Shown here: piece after piece, positions 1,005 through 63,858 of the stretch
How the letters are laid out: every line of letters starts with the position of its first letter
How positions within the stretch are numbered: position 1 is the first letter of the stretch
Assembly (NCBI GenBank): GCA_964436465.1
Contig: CAYTCV010000001.1
Location: 31,852 to 95,851 of the forward strand
From: an uncultured bacterium
GTDB lineage: Bacteria > RBG-13-66-14
Direction of reading: 5' to 3'
Length of the DNA stretch: 64,000 bases
Translations under genes and position numbers: made by a program
The notes under the pieces: generated by a model
Seen by the model: the letters and a program-made list of their open reading frames with translations, nothing else
What the model was told of the DNA's origin: nothing
The model's database searches: none

Positions 1005-1877
1005 TCAACAATCGTCCAACGGTTCCCAGTCCAGGTATTTATACGCGTCGCAGCGGGAGCAGAGTTTTATTTTATCCCTCTCGCCCCGTGAGAGCAGTTC
1101 GCGGTAGCCCCCCGCGACGGGACCGTTCCAGATTTCGAGCACTGTCTTCGAGTTCACGTCGCCTATAACGCCGCGTCCCTCCACGTCCCAGCAGCACAGC
1201 ACCGCCCGGCCGTCGGTGAAGAAGAACATCTCGTTTAAAATTTTCAGGCAGGGCTTGAGGACTACGTCGGCCTCGGTCTGACCGGACCAGGGCCAGCGGT
1301 AGAGCTGAACGAGCTCCACGCTGTCGGCCAGCGGCTCCCAGTAGCGCCGGAACTCCTCCCGCTCGTCCGCGTTCTCCGGCATCTCTATCATCCGCACGTG
1401 GGTGGCGCAGGCGGTGCCCTTCGCGAGCTCGCAGAAACGGGTGACGCGCTCGTACACCGCGTCGCGGTCTATTCCGGGCCGCGTCTTTTCGTAAACCTCG
1501 GTGGAGACGGCGTCGATGGAGAAGCGGACCTCGTCGAGGCCGAGCGCCAAAAACGCCCGCGCCCGCTTTTCGGGAAGAAGCTCGCCGTTGGTGTTGAGCT
1601 CCGCCCGCGCCGTGGGGTCCTTCTTGATGTAGGCGACTATTTCCTCCAGCCGGTTGTCGCACAAAGGCTCGTTTTGCAGGAACGGGCGGTAGGTGATGCC
1701 CAGCCCGCGTGTTTCGTCGATGATTTTTCGCCACAGGCGCTCCTCCATCCTCACCGGGCCCCGCGTGAGGTCCTTCTGCAGGCAGAAGGGGCAGGCGGCG
1801 TTGCAGGCGGTGGTGGTCTCGATTTGGATGACCCGGGGAGCGGGGGGGAACTCGCTGAAGCGGTCGGTGTTTTCCAT
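1005..1877 (-). CDS. radical SAM / SPASM-domain protein
   Basis: CNAACPFC (CxxxCxxC) radical SAM cluster motif near the N-terminus; C-terminal Cys-rich SPASM/twitch-like region (CLKILNE...LCCWDVEG...LEIWNG...CSRCD). Confidence 0.8.
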   Translation of the reverse strand: MENTDRFSEFPPAPRVIQIETTTACNAACPFCLQKDLTRGPVRMEERLWRKIIDETRGLGITYRPFLQNEPLCDNRLEEIVAYIKKDPTARAELNTNGELLPEKRARAFLALGLDEVRFSIDAVSTEVYEKTRPGIDRDAVYERVTRFCELAKGTACATHVRMIEMPENADEREEFRRYWEPLADSVELVQLYRWPWSGQTEADVVLKPCLKILNEMFFFTDGRAVLCCWDVEGRGVIGDVNSKTVLEIWNGPVAGGYRELLSRGERDKIKLCSRCDAYKYLDWEPLDDC

Positions 1878-13011: not shown

Positions 13012-14408
13012 GACGCCGCCCTCGGGCTATCCGCCGCCGGCCGGACGTAGATGGGATTGGAGAAGAGCCAGAGTCGCTGCACCTTGCCCCAGGGGAGGTT
13101 GGGCGCCTCGACCCAGGCCTCGACCCGGTACACGCCGGACCTGAAGACCCGGTACACGAACCGGTTGTCCGGAATACGCCGCAACAGCTCGCCGTCACGG
13201 ATGAGCCGCAGCTCGATTCCCTCCGCCGGGGGGCAGTAGGCCTCCAGGGTCGTGGGCTCGTCGCCGAGGTTCGTCTCGTCGCCCATAATGACGGTTCTCT
13301 CCCCCGTGCGGGCGGTGAACCGGAATCCCCGGCCGTCCCCGATGGGGGCGATGCAGCCGAAGCAGTGCCCCCGGGCGAGGGCCCCGGTGATGAGGGCCGA
13401 GGCGACGCCGGGGTCGTTCGGCAGGCGTTGCGGCAGAAGGACATAGGTGTGGATTGTTTTAAAGGCACTCTCGTAGCTCGGCACGTTCATGTACCAGTCG
13501 CCCAGGACCTTGGACCGCCCCAGGGCCTCGACGGAGGCCAGCCCAACCACCGGTCTGGTCCGGCACAGCTCGTCCCAGAGCGTGAACACCGCCCGGTCCA
13601 CGCCGAGACGGGCGTAGGAGCGGGGGCCGTCCAGGAGGTTCACACTGACCGCGCCGAGCCAGGTCAGGAGGTCTGCTCCCCGCCACAGGCCGCGCAGGTT
13701 GACCACCTCCAGAGCGGTGAAGTTGGACAGACTCCAGTCGTGCCAGGGTTCTTCGGCGTCCAGCGGCCTGGCGACGACCGACAGCCCCTTCTCGTTGACC
13801 TCGGCGCAGATGCTCGCCGTGGAACGACTGAGTCCCTTGGGCACGGTCTTGGGGCCCAGAATCCACAGCTTCCCCTCGGGCCGTTCGAGCTCGGCGCCGC
13901 AGATGAGGTACAGGTGACCGTAGTTGCCGACTTTGCCGTCTTTGCGGGCCCGCATCGACTGCACGTCGGTGAAGACGACGAAGTCCAGGTCCGCCTTCCG
14001 CGCCAGGACGGCGATTTCACCGTACGTCGAGGCGCCGTCGGAGTATAGGCTGTGCACGCCGAGCACGCCCCGGTAGGCGTAGTACCCGCCCAGCCGGGGG
14101 TAGACGGCGAAGTTCTTCGCGGGGAACTGGACCTGGAGGTTGTAGAGGGAGAAGAGGGTGAAGGCGGCCACCAGGGCCAGGATGACGTCCCGAACCATAC
14201 GGCGGCGTTTCTTGCGGCGGGTTTTCGCTTCCGTCGTGGTCGGGGCGTCGGGGCCGTGGGTGAGGTCCTGGGCGCGGGGGTGGGGACTCTCGGGGGGCGC
14301 CGTTTTGCGGGTCTTCCCTCGCCGGAACAGGCGCCGGAAAAACGCGCCGACCGCCCCCGTGAGGCCGGTCCAACACTTTTTGAGCCTGTGGGATTTTTCC
14401 TGGGTCAA
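13008..14408 (-). CDS. membrane-anchored PHP-domain metallohydrolase (CehA/McbA-like), paralog A
   Basis: N-terminal basic region + TM helix; GVLGVHSLYSDG PHP-like His motif; C-terminus YRVEAWVEAPNLPWGKVQRLWLFSNPIYVRP resembles the C-terminus of the 32648-33799 protein. Confidence 0.6.
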   Translation of the reverse strand: MTQEKSHRLKKCWTGLTGAVGAFFRRLFRRGKTRKTAPPESPHPRAQDLTHGPDAPTTTEAKTRRKKRRRMVRDVILALVAAFTLFSLYNLQVQFPAKNFAVYPRLGGYYAYRGVLGVHSLYSDGASTYGEIAVLARKADLDFVVFTDVQSMRARKDGKVGNYGHLYLICGAELERPEGKLWILGPKTVPKGLSRSTASICAEVNEKGLSVVARPLDAEEPWHDWSLSNFTALEVVNLRGLWRGADLLTWLGAVSVNLLDGPRSYARLGVDRAVFTLWDELCRTRPVVGLASVEALGRSKVLGDWYMNVPSYESAFKTIHTYVLLPQRLPNDPGVASALITGALARGHCFGCIAPIGDGRGFRFTARTGERTVIMGDETNLGDEPTTLEAYCPPAEGIELRLIRDGELLRRIPDNRFVYRVFRSGVYRVEAWVEAPNLPWGKVQRLWLFSNPIYVRPAADSPRAAS

Positions 14409-47899: not shown

Positions 47900-48046
47900 G
47901 GCCCCTGGTCTCCCTCTCCCCGTGGGAGAGGGATTAAGGGTGAGGGCTACCTTCTGCCCCCTCGCCCCTCTGGGGAGAGGGCTGGGGTGAGGGGAGGGCC
48001 GACCTAAACGGCGCGCCGTCGGTCGGCCCCTACGTAATCGCAGCGG
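47900..48046. repeat. REP-like palindromic element cluster (locus 4)
   Basis: ctccctctccccgtgggagaggg; ttaagggtgagggctacctt (same motif as at 5497); cccctctggggagaggg; ggtcggcccctacgtaatcgcagcggc. Confidence 0.65.
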
Positions 48047-53355: not shown

Positions 53356-54402
53356 ATGGCAGAGGGTACTGGTGGGGAAAAGGCGCGCAACCTGGAGGCG
53401 GCCTTCGCCCAAATCGAGCGGAAATACGGCAAAGGCGCGATTATGCGCATGGGCGGGGAAGGCGAACGGGACATAGACGTCATCCCCACCGGCTCTCTCT
53501 CCATAGACCGCGCCCTGGGCGTGGGCGGTCTCCCCCGGGGTCGAATCATCGAAATCTACGGCCCCGAGGCCAGCGGCAAGACCACCCTCACCCTGCACGT
53601 CATCGCCAGCGCCCAGTCGTTGGGCGGCATAGCGGCTTTCATCGACGTGGAGCACGCCCTGGACGTCAATTACGCGAAAAACCTCGGCATCAACATCGAG
53701 GAGCTGCTTGTCAGCCAGCCCGACACCGGGGAGCAGGCGCTGGAAATCGTGGAGATGCTCGTCCGCTCGGGCGCCGTGGACCTCGTGGTGGTGGACTCCG
53801 TGGCGGCCCTGGTCCCCCGGGTTGAAATCGAGGGCGAGATGGGCGACAGCCACGTGGCCCTGCAGGCCCGGCTGATGAGTCAGGCCCTGCGCAAGCTTAC
53901 CGGCGTGGTGAGCCGTTCCCACTGCTGCATCCTCTTCACCAACCAAATCCGCGAGAAGGTCGGCGTGGTTTTCGGCAATCCCGAGATAACACCGGGCGGA
54001 CGGGCGCTCAAGTTCTACACCACGGTGCGCATGGAGGTGCGCCGCATAGGCTCGTTGAAGGTCGGCGGCGACAACATCGGCAACCGCAGCCGGGTCAAGG
54101 TGGTCAAGAATAAGGTCGCCCCGCCGTTCAAGGAAGCCGAGTTCGACATCATTTTCGGTCAGGGCATCAACCGCGTGGGCGAGGTCATCGACCTCGGCGT
54201 GGAGGCCGGCGTCATCGAGAAGTCGGGGAGCTGGTTTTCATACGAAGGCGAGCGGTTGGGTCAGGGCAAGGAAAACGTCAAGGAGTCGCTCGACGAAAAG
54301 CCGGAGATGCTGGCGACCATCGAGGCCAAGGTGCGCGACTTCTTCGGCATCCCGGCGCAGAAGGGCGCCGCGAAGCCCAAGAAAGAGGCCGCCGCGGAGT
54401 GA
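53356..54402 (+). CDS. recA: recombinase RecA
   Basis: GPEASGKTT Walker A, full-length RecA similarity including the L1/L2 loop regions. Confidence 0.97.
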
Positions 54403-54477
54403 CCGTCCGTGGTTTTCGGGGCGCATATACGGCGGGGGCTGCGGTCCCCGTTTTTTACCGCGCCCTTGTACGACGCG

Positions 54478-54510
54478 AAAAAAAACGGCGCCCGGGCGCC
54501 GACTTTTTTA
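54478..54510. terminator. bidirectional rho-independent terminator between recA and the convergent membrane-protein gene
   Basis: A8-CGGCGCCCGGGCGCCG (perfect palindrome)-ACTTTTTT. Confidence 0.5.
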
Positions 54511-54530
54511 AAAATTTTCCCAAGGGATGC

Positions 54531-54938
54531 CTAATACTCCGATGGCTTGTCGCCGATGACGCCCTTTAAAACCAGAATCCCAACCGCGACCAGCGCCAGG
54601 CCGACCCAGCCCGGAATCGAGGTCCAGAAGCCTATCCACAGCGGAAGTCCCATGAAGGTGCAGCCCAGAAAACACGCGAGGCCGATGAAGAAGAGTATCA
54701 ACCCGGAGGTGAAGAATCCCGCCGCCCGCTGCCGGGGCGTTTTCGGCTTACGTTCGATGTCGGTAAGCCAGTCGGGCGGCGTGATGCCCTGCCGTAGCGC
54801 CTCCATCCTCTCCTCGTGAACCAGCTTCTTCCTCCGGAAGTCCAGCCAAATGGCCAGCATCCCGATGCCGATTCCCATGAAGACCGCGGTGAATCCGACT
54901 ACATCCATGAGAGCCCCCGTCCGCAGTATTCGCCTCAC
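54531..54938 (-). CDS. hypothetical small multi-TM membrane protein
   Basis: Three to four hydrophobic helices; may start at the internal MDVVGF (54908). Confidence 0.45.
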   Translation of the reverse strand: MRRILRTGALMDVVGFTAVFMGIGIGMLAIWLDFRRKKLVHEERMEALRQGITPPDWLTDIERKPKTPRQRAAGFFTSGLILFFIGLACFLGCTFMGLPLWIGFWTSIPGWVGLALVAVGILVLKGVIGDKPSEY

Positions 54939-55101
54939 ACCCTAAGATACGCCCCGGGCGGGACCGGTTTCACTGGTGTGCTACCTCCATTTCACCTTGA
55001 CGATACTACCACATCGTCCTACCATTGGAAAATAGAGTCAGGCGCAGGGAAACCCGTCGAAGCGAACCGGGTCGCGCTCCGGTGAATACTTGAGCGAAGG
55101 C

Positions 55102-55229
55102 GTATCCGCGACGGCGAGCCGTTAATCCGCGACGGCGAGCCGTGTATCTGCGACGGCGAAGCCGTGAATCCGCGACGGCGAGCCGTGTATCTGCGACGGC
55201 GAAGCCGTGAATCCGCGACGGCGAGCCGT
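55102..55229. repeat. six tandem 21-22 bp direct repeats (GAATCCGCGACGGCGAGCCGT consensus) in a divergent intergenic region
   Basis: Units at 55102, 55123, 55144, 55166, 55187 and 55209 alternate between two variants (ATCCGCGACGGCGAGCCGT / ATCTGCGACGGCGAAGCCGT); they lie 45-175 bp upstream of the ECF sigma gene start and 165-290 bp from the divergent membrane-protein gene start. Confidence 0.8.
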
Positions 55230-55275
55230 GAAACCGCTCCGCCCTTTTTTGTATCGAAGGGTATGAAAGCCGTTT

Positions 55276-55860
55276 TTGTTGGAGACGGAACGGGAACAGG
55301 AACTGATTCGCCGGGCGATAGAGGGCGACGAGAACGCATTCGCCGAGCTGGTGCACGCTACACAGGATTTAGTTTATACGTGCTGTTACCGCGTCCTGCG
55401 GGAGCCCCGGGCGGCCGAGGAAGCCGCGAACGAGGCCTACCTGCGGGCCTGGCGCGGCCTGGCCGGTTTCCGCTTCCAGGCGAAATTCTCCAGTTGGATT
55501 TTCCGCATCGCCCACAACGCCGCGGTGAGGATGGCGACCCGTCGGCGCCTGGAAACGGTCTCCATGGACGACGAGGAGCACCCCGGCCTGGCGCAGGCGG
55601 CCGTGGACGAGCCTACGGCGGAGCGCGCCCTGGAGGCGGACGGCGAGTTGACGCTCGTGCGCGGGCTGCTGGACGAGCTGCCGGAGAACGAGCGCCGGGC
55701 CATCGAGCTGGCGTACCTGGAGGGTGTGGATTACCGCGACGCCGCCGCGGCCCTCGGGTGCCCCGTGGCCACCCTCAAGACCTGGGTTCATCGCGGAAGG
55801 AAGCGGCTGCGGGAGCTCTACATCGAGCGGACGGGCGGTCCGTTCCGGGTTGCCGAATGA
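55276..55860 (+). CDS. ECF-type RNA polymerase sigma factor (sigma-70 family region 2 + region 4)
   Basis: TTG start; region 2 (FAELVHATQDLVYTCCYRVL...AEEAANEAYLRAWRGL) and region 4 HTH (LPENERRAIELAYLEGVDYRDAAAALGCPVATLKTWVHRGRKRL). Confidence 0.85.
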   Translation: MLETEREQELIRRAIEGDENAFAELVHATQDLVYTCCYRVLREPRAAEEAANEAYLRAWRGLAGFRFQAKFSSWIFRIAHNAAVRMATRRRLETVSMDDEEHPGLAQAAVDEPTAERALEADGELTLVRGLLDELPENERRAIELAYLEGVDYRDAAAALGCPVATLKTWVHRGRKRLRELYIERTGGPFRVAE

Positions 55861-55894
55861 TTGTATATTAGGCTATGCTTTACGAGGGGTGAAC

Positions 55895-56590
55895 ATGGAC
55901 GCCGACGAGCTGCGGGACTTTTTAGACCACGGTGGTCGGTCGAGCGGGGAGAGGGGGAGTCGCGGAAATATGAACGCCGACGAGCTGAGGGAGCTTTTGG
56001 ACCGGTACGCGGCCGGTGAGCTTCCCCCCGAGGAGCGGGAGGCCTTCCGGAGCGCCCTGGAGAGGGTCCGCCGGAAGGCAGAAGGCGTCGAGGAGCGGGT
56101 CGGCCGGCTGGAGGAAAAAATCACCGACCGGGTGAACCGGGCCGTGGAGAAGATTGACACCCGGCTGGCCGAGGGCGGGGAGAAGCTCCGACGCAAGCTG
56201 GACCTCCTGGATGAGCTGAACCTCGCCCGGCGCATCGAGGAAAAACTACACCGGGTGGTGCTCTTCCGAGCACCGGAGAATCTGAGCGCCGCCGTGATGC
56301 GGGGCGTTTGTGCCGAGAAGCGGCCGAAGGTGGTCATTCCGCCGATGCGCCGCTCGCTGATGCCCGCCGTGCTACTGGGGGGCGGCCTCCTCGTGGCGCT
56401 GACCGTCGGCGCCGCCGCCATCCTGCCCATGTTCGGGGTAAACCTCGGGGTAAATCTCGGCGGGCTTCCCGACTGGTTCACCTGGATTCCCGCCGGTCTT
56501 TCGGCCTGCTTCGGCGCCGGCATGGTCCTGCGGACCCTTCTGCGCTCCCGGAACGACCCGGCCTTCCGGACCGCCGTAAAAAAAGGGTAG
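55895..56590 (+). CDS. anti-sigma factor candidate (membrane-spanning), with duplicated N-terminal segment
   Basis: Immediately downstream of the ECF sigma gene; N-terminal ELRELLDRYAAGELPPEEREAF anti-sigma-like helix, coiled-coil middle, C-terminal TM segments; MDADELRDFLD and MNADELRELLD are a tandem duplication, so the start may be 55895 or 55970. Confidence 0.5.
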   Translation: MDADELRDFLDHGGRSSGERGSRGNMNADELRELLDRYAAGELPPEEREAFRSALERVRRKAEGVEERVGRLEEKITDRVNRAVEKIDTRLAEGGEKLRRKLDLLDELNLARRIEEKLHRVVLFRAPENLSAAVMRGVCAEKRPKVVIPPMRRSLMPAVLLGGGLLVALTVGAAAILPMFGVNLGVNLGGLPDWFTWIPAGLSACFGAGMVLRTLLRSRNDPAFRTAVKKG

Positions 56591-56596
56591 GAATAG

Positions 56597-57064
56597 ATGG
56601 ACGGGGACCTTCTGCCCGACGGACGGCGCGAGATGAGCGTCTTGTTCACCAACCTCGAAGGCTTTAAGGGGCTGGCCGAGAAGCTGGGCGATGAAGGGGC
56701 GGCCTCGCTCCTGGCCGAATACTACGACGCCGTGGGCCGGATAGTCGAAAAGCACGGTGGGGTGGTGGACAAGCTCATGGGCGAAGGCGTCCTAGCCACG
56801 TTCAACGCCGTGGCCGAACTGGAGGACCACGGCCCGGTGGCGCGTCGGGCGGCGGAGGAGATAATCGCCGAGGTCTCCCGGCTGACGGCCGGGGGCGGTC
56901 CGCTACGGGCGGCGGTGGGCGTGGCGTCCGGTCCCGCCGATGTTCGTACCTTTTCCGCCGGCTCGTACACCGCCACCACCGTAGTCGGCGGGACGGTGAG
57001 CCGCGCCGCCCAGGCCGCGCGCGGACGACGTTACGGCTCGGTTTCCGACACCGACGCGAAGTAG
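56597..57064 (+). CDS. class III adenylate/guanylate cyclase-homology domain protein, catalytically degenerate
   Basis: MSVLFTNLEGFKGLAE...HGGVVDKLMGEGVLATFN aligns with the FTDIVGFT...GG.VDKFIGD cyclase core, but both metal-binding Asp positions are N and E; 155 aa, standalone. Confidence 0.55.
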   Translation: MDGDLLPDGRREMSVLFTNLEGFKGLAEKLGDEGAASLLAEYYDAVGRIVEKHGGVVDKLMGEGVLATFNAVAELEDHGPVARRAAEEIIAEVSRLTAGGGPLRAAVGVASGPADVRTFSAGSYTATTVVGGTVSRAAQAARGRRYGSVSDTDAK

Positions 57065-63524: not shown

Positions 63525-63858
63525 CGCACCCGCCCGATGCTTCCGGTGCATAAATGTAGGGCGGGGATTTTAATCCCCGCCGCTTTGTTTACATGGCAGC
63601 CATCACCCCTGACCCCTCTCCCACAGGGAGAGGGGGGACCGCTACACCCCCCTCCCTAGCCCTCCCCCCAAAGAGGGGAGGGGATTGGCGGCAACCCTCG
63701 CCCCAAATGTGTTTGCGATGACGTAGGGGCGGGGCTCCGTCCCCGTCCGTTTTGCCTCTGAATGTAGGGCGGGGAATCCTTTCCCCGCCGCGTCTACCCT
63801 CACCCTAGCCCTCTCCCTAGCCCGTAAGCGCGCTTCCCCCCAGAGGGGGGAGGGGACT
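63525..63858. repeat. REP-like palindromic element cluster (locus 5), copies in both orientations
   Basis: gtagggcggggattttaatccccgcc; cccctctcccacagggagagggg; cctccctagccctccccccaaagaggggagggg; gcgatgacgtaggggcgggg (reverse complement of ccccgcccctacgtcatcgc); gtagggcggggaatcctttccccgcc; ctaccctcaccc (reverse complement of gggtgagggtag). Confidence 0.7.

Follow-up and report, generated by a model that had tools for sequence, protein, structure and literature searches.

The window analyzed here is a 64-kb stretch of DNA from an uncultivated lineage, in which an array of six head-to-tail units (21/21/22/21/22/21 bp) can be read directly from the sequence at positions 55102-55229 of the plus strand. 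The array lies between the divergently oriented genes for a DUF6249-like small membrane protein and an ECF sigma factor. The sigma factor gene is followed by a gene for a zf-HC2 anti-sigma factor and by a cyclase-like gene, and xseA lies downstream of the latter. The order recA / DUF6249 <-> sigma / anti-sigma / cyclase-like / xseA is kept in four relatives (L002, L003, L116, and L120), and two other contigs, L004 and L008, are short and span only part of this block. The features and their coordinates are collected in Table 1.

The wider surroundings are of a housekeeping character and include genes for heterodisulfide-reductase-like proteins, a pseudouridine synthase, an NHL-repeat protein, an AIR-synthase-like protein, a polyprenyl synthase, and a dihydroorotase-like protein. 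Within ~10 kb of the array, there is no gene for a regulator, a Rep protein, or a transposase. The array itself gave no match to Rfam or to plasmid, phage, or viral sequences, and an Rfam scan of positions 54300-55900 (E ≤ 1) returned just two chance matches to Leu_leader, both outside the array. A Tn7-like transposon end, origin iterons, and a partition site were considered and are ruled out by the conserved synteny, the absent cargo, and the housekeeping genes.

The orthologues of the membrane protein are 124-125 aa in length, and the ATG at 54908 is therefore favored as the start codon, which gives an intergenic region of ~367 bp. The distances from the array to its flanking genes that were given in the first-pass annotation hold for a GTG start at 54938. 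The likely ribosome-binding site of the sigma factor gene is GAAAG at 55265-55269.

Table 1. Features of the sigma locus in the window and of the crp-like/GNAT junction in related contigs
Feature	Sequence	Position	Strand	Description
recA	window	53356-54402	+	upstream neighbor
DUF6249-like small membrane protein gene	window	54531-54908	-	125 aa from ATG 54908
DUF6249 ECF promoter (predicted)	window	54940-54972	-	TGAAAC 54972-54967, GTATC 54950-54946, then TTAGGG
Putative sigma-70-like pair TTGACG-17-TACCAT	window	54997-55025	+	inside conserved block TTTCACCTTGACGATACTACCAC..
Degenerate edge copy, 5' of unit 1	window	55084-55101	+	GAATACTTGAGCGAAGGC; ~16/22 identity to unit, 2-nt gap allowed
Unit 1	window	55102-55122	+	GTATCCGCGACGGCGAGCCGT
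Unit 2	window	55123-55143	+	TAATCCGCGACGGCGAGCCGT (starts TAATCC)
Unit 3	window	55144-55165	+	GTATCTGCGACGGCGAAGCCGT
Unit 4	window	55166-55186	+	GAATCCGCGACGGCGAGCCGT (starts GAATCC)
Unit 5	window	55187-55208	+	GTATCTGCGACGGCGAAGCCGT, same as unit 3
Unit 6	window	55209-55229	+	GAATCCGCGACGGCGAGCCGT, same as unit 4
Promoter look-alike, unit 2/3 junction	window	55122-55148	+	TTAATCC-N15-GTATCT; 12.8 bits (matrix hit 55119), fourth in window
Promoter look-alike, unit 4/5 junction	window	55165-55191	+	TGAATCC-N15-GTATCT; 16.6 bits (matrix hit 55162), third in window
Sigma-operon ECF promoter (predicted)	window	55229-55261	+	TGAAACC 55229-55235, 15-nt spacer, GTATC 55251-55255, then GAAGGG
ECF sigma factor gene	window	55276-55860	+	TTG start at 55276 or 55279
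zf-HC2 anti-sigma factor gene	window	55895-56590	+	75-bp insertion with duplicated N-terminal start, 55895-55969
Cyclase-like gene	window	56597-57064	+	155 aa; final gene of conserved sigma module; Guanylate_cyc matches on orthologues
Array at crp-like/GNAT junction	L111	3436-3545		five tandem units of AAATCTGCGACGGCGAAGCCGT
Array at crp-like/GNAT junction	L113			two units
Degenerate copy in crp-like gene tail	L123 (related species)	1262-1283		single copy AGGTCCGCGACGGCGAAGTCAA, within ..RSATAKS..

Structure and authenticity of the array

Two types of unit are present. Type a is 21 bp in length (..ATCCGCGACGGCGAGCCGT), and type b is 22 bp (GTATCTGCGACGGCGAAGCCGT) and contains one A more. Each unit is composed of a 19-20-nt core, ATCYGCGACGGCGA(A)GCCGT, and a 2-nt linker. 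The first-pass annotation correctly described two variants; the alternation that it proposed does not hold, as the actual order along the array is a,a,b,a,b,a. Units 3 and 4 are duplicated exactly as units 5 and 6, such that the 43 bp at 55144-55186 and 55187-55229 are the same.

Tandem Repeats Finder reports the array with a period of 21 (6.3 copies, score 208) and with a period of 43 (3.0 copies, 96% matches, score 237). It is the sole strong tandem repeat found by this program in the 64-kb window, with all others scoring ≤55. Four exact occurrences of the 19-mer core are present versus 0.11 matches expected from shuffles at ≤3 mismatches. Decayed copies border the array on both sides. The degenerate copy on the upstream edge is supported by a copy at 55096-55138 with 77% identity and by direct reading of the sequence. 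On the downstream edge, the decayed copy GAAACCGC is the -35 hexamer of the sigma promoter.

The same six units were obtained in three other independent metagenome assemblies (L114, L129, and L130), and the array is therefore real. An assembly artefact is ruled out by these three assemblies together with the window and by a 4-unit form that occupies the same place in L112. The six tandem 21-22-bp repeats first noticed in the divergent promoter region are thus genuine, phased, and arranged head to tail, and the exclusion of a CRISPR array was sound: the units are contiguous, and no unique spacers separate them.

The divergent ECF promoters

The array sits between two predicted, divergent ECF promoters of the sigmaW type, which serve the DUF6249 gene and the sigma operon, respectively. 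The -35 hexamer of the sigma promoter adjoins the last array unit in register. Promoters of the sigmaW/ECF01 type combine TGAAAC with a CGTA-type -10 element (PMC5758882). The flanking sites at 55229-55261 and 54972-54940 agree with this published consensus, and their hexamers are conserved in the orthologues. The consensus derived from 13 sites at seven loci is TGAAACC-N15-GTATCnnAGGG, and AAACC and TGTATC are invariant in an alignment of eight sequences. The pattern TGAAAC-N16-GTATC with ≤1 mismatch is found three times in the window versus 0.24 expected.

A position weight matrix was trained on the orthologous promoters alone, with the window left out. The sigma promoter scores 33.9 bits and is the best match in the window, followed by the DUF6249 promoter at 31.1 bits. 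The 13 true ECF sites score 28-34 bits, and beyond the two true promoters no site in the 64-kb window exceeds 17 bits. We infer that the sigma factor acts on both sites, such that it would activate its own operon as well as the DUF6249 gene. The conserved sites imply that direct control of this membrane-protein gene by the ECF sigma factor is itself conserved. The promoter pair would define the autoregulated core regulon of the module, consisting of the sigma operon and the DUF6249 gene, and in this respect is more useful than the array.

The putative sigma-70-like pair upstream of the array has a -10 element, TACCAT, that is not conserved in L002. If this pair is active, then the array would fall within a 5' leader. 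The block that contains it is conserved in relatives (54989-55035, TTTCACCTTGACGATACTACCACATCGTCCTACCATTGG) and also holds a 6-bp inverted repeat, GACGAT..ATCGTC. When judged against distant orthologues, a 22-bp insertion on the DUF6249 promoter side has moved this block off the DUF6249 -35 hexamer in the clade and has added a second -35-like hexamer, TGAAAT. In contig L005 of a more distant relative (2268-2303; sigma protein 76% identical), the DUF6249-like gene and the sigma factor gene point in the same direction, and the former is preceded by one promoter-like site, TTTGCAACC..GTATCTTAG, with a score of 21 bits. The promoters of this relative have therefore undergone rearrangement.

Two unit junctions within the array resemble the ECF promoters. 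They carry AAT in place of the invariant AAC, are not followed by AGGG, and reach about half the bits of the true sites. The junctions are probably weak or inactive because the invariant AAC and the AGGG are missing. The next-best match after them scores 9.3 bits in 128 kb of strand sequence. It is unlikely that they rank third and fourth by chance, which hints at promoter ancestry or selection. Such look-alikes are absent from the array of L120, which contains b units only, and from the arrays at the crp locus described below. The mimicry is therefore species-specific and not a property of the repeat family.

Copy number among relatives and a second locus

The first-pass annotation proposed that the copy number be compared across strains. 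This comparison was carried out at the sigma locus, where 0, 3, 4, and 6 units are found among the relatives. No units are present in L002, L003, and L008 (sigma protein 75-83% identical, intergenic region ~150-170 bp) or in L115, L116, and L117 (sigma protein 91-92% identical). These six orthologous loci retain the same genes and both promoters, and the array is therefore outside the conserved regulatory design. The sister species L120 (sigma protein 93% identical, recA 93% identical at the nucleotide level) contains three identical b units in the same place, which touch GAAACC. The distance from one -35 hexamer to the other is ~42-56 bp in the distant orthologues, 85 bp in L116, 194 bp in L120, and 257 bp in the window.

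Within the species of the window, six units each are found in the window, L114, L129, and L130. L112 has four units (a,a,b,a), which corresponds to exactly one 43-bp module fewer, and is set apart from the window by a few SNPs as well. The count in L112 could be due to collapse of the exact 43-bp duplicate by the assembler. Exactly six units are thus present in four of the five same-species assemblies, all of them consensus assemblies, and the rapid phase variation that had been suggested is not supported. A Logan unitig with an identical sigma factor gene starts or breaks inside the array, as a repeat would predict. Judged from these sequence comparisons, the array is a derived, lineage-specific insertion that is dispensable for the promoter pair and that differs in copy number between close relatives. 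It has the attributes of a VNTR: the units are arranged head to tail within the range of ~10-100 bp, and the copy number differs among relatives at one locus (0, 3, 4, and 6 at the sigma locus, with the 4-unit count possibly collapsed; 1, 2, and 5 at the crp locus).

A separate tandem duplication is found at the 5' end of the anti-sigma factor gene, where a 75-bp insertion (55895-55969 versus 55970-56044) duplicates the start of the protein (MDADELRDFLD.. then MNADELRELLD..). This duplication is present in the window and in L116 and is absent from L120 and L115. The array, in contrast, is common to the window and L120. The two patterns are incongruent, which indicates repeated gain and loss of tandem duplications in this region, or their exchange by recombination.

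A second locus was detected by a metagenome scan with a unit-junction pattern. The 20-mer ATCTGCGACGGCGAAGCCGT recurs in related contigs at an unrelated junction between a crp-like gene and a GNAT gene, and the unit therefore belongs to a small dispersed family. The expectation that the motif would occur elsewhere was in this sense correct. The tracts of L111 and L113 begin in the last codons of a Crp/Fnr-family gene (..FLKSATAKP*), just 5' of a GNAT acetyltransferase gene, and only 27 nt remain before the next start codon. One homologue of this Crp/Fnr-family regulator is labelled Candidatus Coatesbacteria, which hints weakly at the lineage. No match to the ECF promoter is found at the crp locus, and the two loci therefore form no obvious regulon; the second site is a gene 3' end and an intercistronic spacer with no matching promoter, and the regulon idea put forward earlier was not supported. 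Relative to the gene that follows, the two arrays point the same way.

In L111 and L113 the repeat provides the final codons and the stop codon of the Crp/Fnr-family regulator and separates this gene from the GNAT gene. The two genes overlap in L123, which has no tandem tract. More distant crp orthologues have other C-terminal tails (KSQLGG, KFLGEC, and KFNLGT). Sequence resembling the unit is found in all three crp-locus contigs examined, and the array at the sigma locus is found in two of four close species. We infer that the crp locus is the more probable source of the repeat because one species, L123, holds a single-copy homologue there. An origin in situ from the sigma -35 hexamer and its spacer was considered and rejected, since the unit spacer matches the promoter spacers at 5-8 of 15 positions, which is near random. 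The single copy at the crp locus shares 12 of 12 core positions with the unit, which favors the crp locus over an origin in situ without settling the matter. Binding of the Crp-like regulator to its neighboring array was also rejected, as the unit contains no 5-N4-6-5 palindrome of the Crp/Fnr type and the array is downstream of the gene.

Solitary sites are absent from the 64-kb window and from 13.9 kb of L111, which together make up the 78 kb examined for such copies. The partial matches at 13184 (19-mer, 2 mismatches) and 30031 (12-mer) of the window lie inside coding sequence and are hence attributed to chance. A scan with ATCCGCGACGGCGAGCCGT of representative genome contigs, a set outside of which the source genome falls, returned 102 single matches scattered over unrelated phyla and no arrays, and these are likewise ascribed to chance. 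The reverse-frame translation of the array was used as a protein query for spurious open reading frames over other arrays and gave no matches.

Other repeats are present in the window. A REP-like palindrome at 47996-48034 (GGGCCGACCTAAACGGCGCGCCGTCGGTCGGCCCCTAC) forms a 10-bp stem, and its terminal CTAC reads GTAG on the opposite strand. The same element is found at 12708-12746 of L111, an unlinked contig, with 100% identity over 39 nt, and L111 therefore derives from the genome of the window or from a close relative of it. The tip of the element, ACGGCGCGCCGT, agrees with the array palindrome ACGGCGAGCCGT in 11 of 12 positions. Short GC-rich motifs, either hairpins or direct repeats (CCCTCTCCCCGTGGGAGAGGG, GGGTGAGGG, and CCCTCACCCTAG), are found in intergenic DNA at 47900-47995 and 63797-63823 and may belong to another dispersed repeat family.

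Origin, function, and relation to known systems

The explanation preferred here, to which we would give an even chance of being correct, is a lineage-specific minisatellite (VNTR): the array would be one member of a small dispersed repeat family, situated next to the -35 hexamer of an ECF promoter that is conserved and autoregulated. A young tandem-repeat insertion would have lodged between two ancestral back-to-back promoters of the sigmaW type. The number of units would change through slipped-strand mispairing or unequal recombination, by 21-22 or 43 bp at a time. Within the b unit, ACG-GCGAAGC-CGT is found, and GCGAAGC is known as an extraordinarily stable DNA mini-hairpin with a Tm of 76.5 °C (PMC13037366). 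This mini-hairpin of the 22-bp unit may promote slippage, which would fit the observed steps of 21, 22, and 43 bp. The nearest-neighbor folding energy of the b unit is only -4.8 kcal/mol, and the a unit, with one A fewer in the loop, forms no stable hairpin. The array at the sigma locus would have arisen as an ectopic copy, with the crp-like/GNAT junction as the likelier birthplace.

Effects on expression would be secondary in such a minisatellite. The array would widen the gap between the divergent -35 hexamers from ~40-85 bp to 194-257 bp in steps of approximately two helical turns, would lengthen any leader that starts at the putative sigma-70-like hexamers upstream, and would create the two weak promoter look-alikes in this species only. 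A mere minisatellite would still be of use as a strain-typing marker for an uncultivated lineage, and it would represent a natural case of a divergent promoter pair that tolerates a repeat insertion of ~130-200 bp up to the -35 hexamer.

The conservation of the unit points in another direction. The b unit is identical at 22 of 22 positions between the window and L120, compared with 80% identity for the adjoining 66 nt and 86% for the third codon positions of recA. The first unit is identical at 22 of 22 positions between L111 and L113, although these contigs diverge by 18% at third codon positions, and the core is identical at 20 of 20 positions between the sigma and crp loci. Under drift alone, such identity would be expected with a probability of roughly 1-7% per comparison. 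The unit is better conserved than its flanks, and sequence constraint, or recent exchange, conversion, or transfer, is therefore favored over free drift. Against a simple minisatellite, the identity of the b unit and of the core beyond the flanks points to constraint or recent transfer, and the unit may have a sequence-specific function. If the unit is constrained in sequence, this would point to a binding factor or to a new way in which short repeats spread. A bolder proposal is that the 20-nt core is a mobile, sequence-constrained element that seeds phased arrays at promoter-proximal and intercistronic sites and acts through a specific partner, which may be a DNA-binding protein or a single-stranded DNA mini-hairpin, to tune the positive feedback of the ECF sigma factor. 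This proposal is considered decidedly unlikely; if true, it would establish portable regulatory repeats as a new class, here in an uncultivated lineage.

The same conservation, which extends across species and loci, would be expected if the units were operators or iteron-like sites for a DNA-binding protein that modulates the sigma promoter, with the crp-like/GNAT array as a second target. Each 20-nt core, or its palindrome ACGGC-N2-3-GCCGT, would be one site, and the spacing of 21-22 bp, equal to two helical turns, would place the sites on a shared face of the helix. The position directly 5' of the -35 hexamer and the like orientation to the downstream gene at both loci are consistent with this role. 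However, the array is missing from six orthologous loci in which both the genes and the promoters are retained, and the spacing between the palindrome half-sites changes with the unit type (GA versus GAA), which is a poor fit for a dimeric regulator. The array at the second locus overlaps a coding 3' end a short distance before the next start codon, no candidate regulator or Rep-like gene is near the array at the sigma locus, the 64-kb window and the 13.9 kb of L111 contain zero solitary sites, and no similarity to plasmids, phages, or viral contigs was detected. Phased repeats of 17-22 bp are thus present, but neither a linked gene for a binding protein nor conservation with the module is found. 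An operator or iteron-like role is judged unlikely, and it is the chief alternative to the minisatellite. Taken as a whole, the first-pass annotation was right about a phased, non-CRISPR array of variable copy number with its motif at another site; its proposals of a regulator-site array, a regulon, and phase variation were not upheld.

Roles at the level of the promoter or the transcript were also weighed. The array could serve the ECF sigma factor itself as a source of additional or decoy promoter modules, such that weak tandem promoters or titration of the holoenzyme tune autoregulation. With the matrix built from orthologues only, the two junctions rank third and fourth in the window (16.6 and 12.8 bits, with 9.3 bits for the next match), one of them matches TGAAAC-N16-GTATC with a single mismatch, and the unit length equals the start-to-start distance from the -35 to the -10 element. 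This role is nevertheless very unlikely, given the 28-34 bits of the true promoters, the AAT for AAC and missing AGGG of the junctions, and the arrays of L120 and the crp locus that contain no such sites. Alternatively, ACGGC-GAA-GCCGU hairpins transcribed in the sense direction could influence the processing or the stability of the mRNA in the manner of REP and MIRU elements, with the array serving as a 5' leader from the putative sigma-70-like promoter at the sigma locus and as an intercistronic spacer at the crp-like/GNAT locus. Both arrays are in sense orientation within regions that are probably transcribed, and relative to shuffled sequence the array folded as RNA gives z = -2.5 for the plus strand versus z = -0.6 for the minus strand. 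The stems, however, are just 4-5 bp, the a units lose the loop, no compensatory changes are seen and one variant disrupts the stem, Rfam gives no match, and the upstream promoter is only putative, with a -10 element that is not conserved in L002. A function in RNA is thus highly improbable, and the lineage-specific minisatellite is retained as the preferred explanation.

Among known systems, the sites that flank the array resemble sigmaW/ECF01 promoters (PMC5758882) in that they fit TGAAAC - 16 nt - (C)GTA and precede a sigma/anti-sigma operon. The same geometry is mimicked by two array junctions, which are without AAC and AGGG. The array is similar to REP and BIME elements as a set of short, GC-rich, palindrome-bearing intergenic repeats at gene ends, and the tip of the real REP-like hairpin of the window resembles the array palindrome. 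In contrast to these elements, the array units are all direct, the stem is 5 bp, and there are 0 solitary copies in the 78 kb; the many dispersed, often mutually inverted copies and the longer imperfect palindromes of REP and BIME elements are not found. A copy-variable repeat tract near a promoter is also typical of contingency loci, but the units of such loci usually measure 1-9 bp, much less than the unit here, and the tract is located 5' of the -35 hexamer, outside the spacer.

Theta-plasmid iterons and tandem pho boxes consist of direct repeats of 17-22 bp that recur every two helical turns, and the array is like them in both repeat length and spacing. It differs from them in that it occupies a chromosomal housekeeping region, has no Rep or regulator gene, has no plasmid match, and is absent from the orthologous loci. 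The MIRUs of mycobacteria are VNTR minisatellites with a repeat unit of 40-100 bp. The array resembles them in its intergenic or intercistronic location, in head-to-tail units that measure tens of base pairs, in decayed edge copies, in the occurrence of one unit at more than one locus, and in a copy number that differs between strains and species. The array unit is shorter (21-22 bp versus 40-100 bp), two loci are known so far, the array varies little within the species, and it touches the -35 hexamer of a promoter. The array is otherwise of a known type and is most likely a new instance of a bacterial minisatellite (VNTR).
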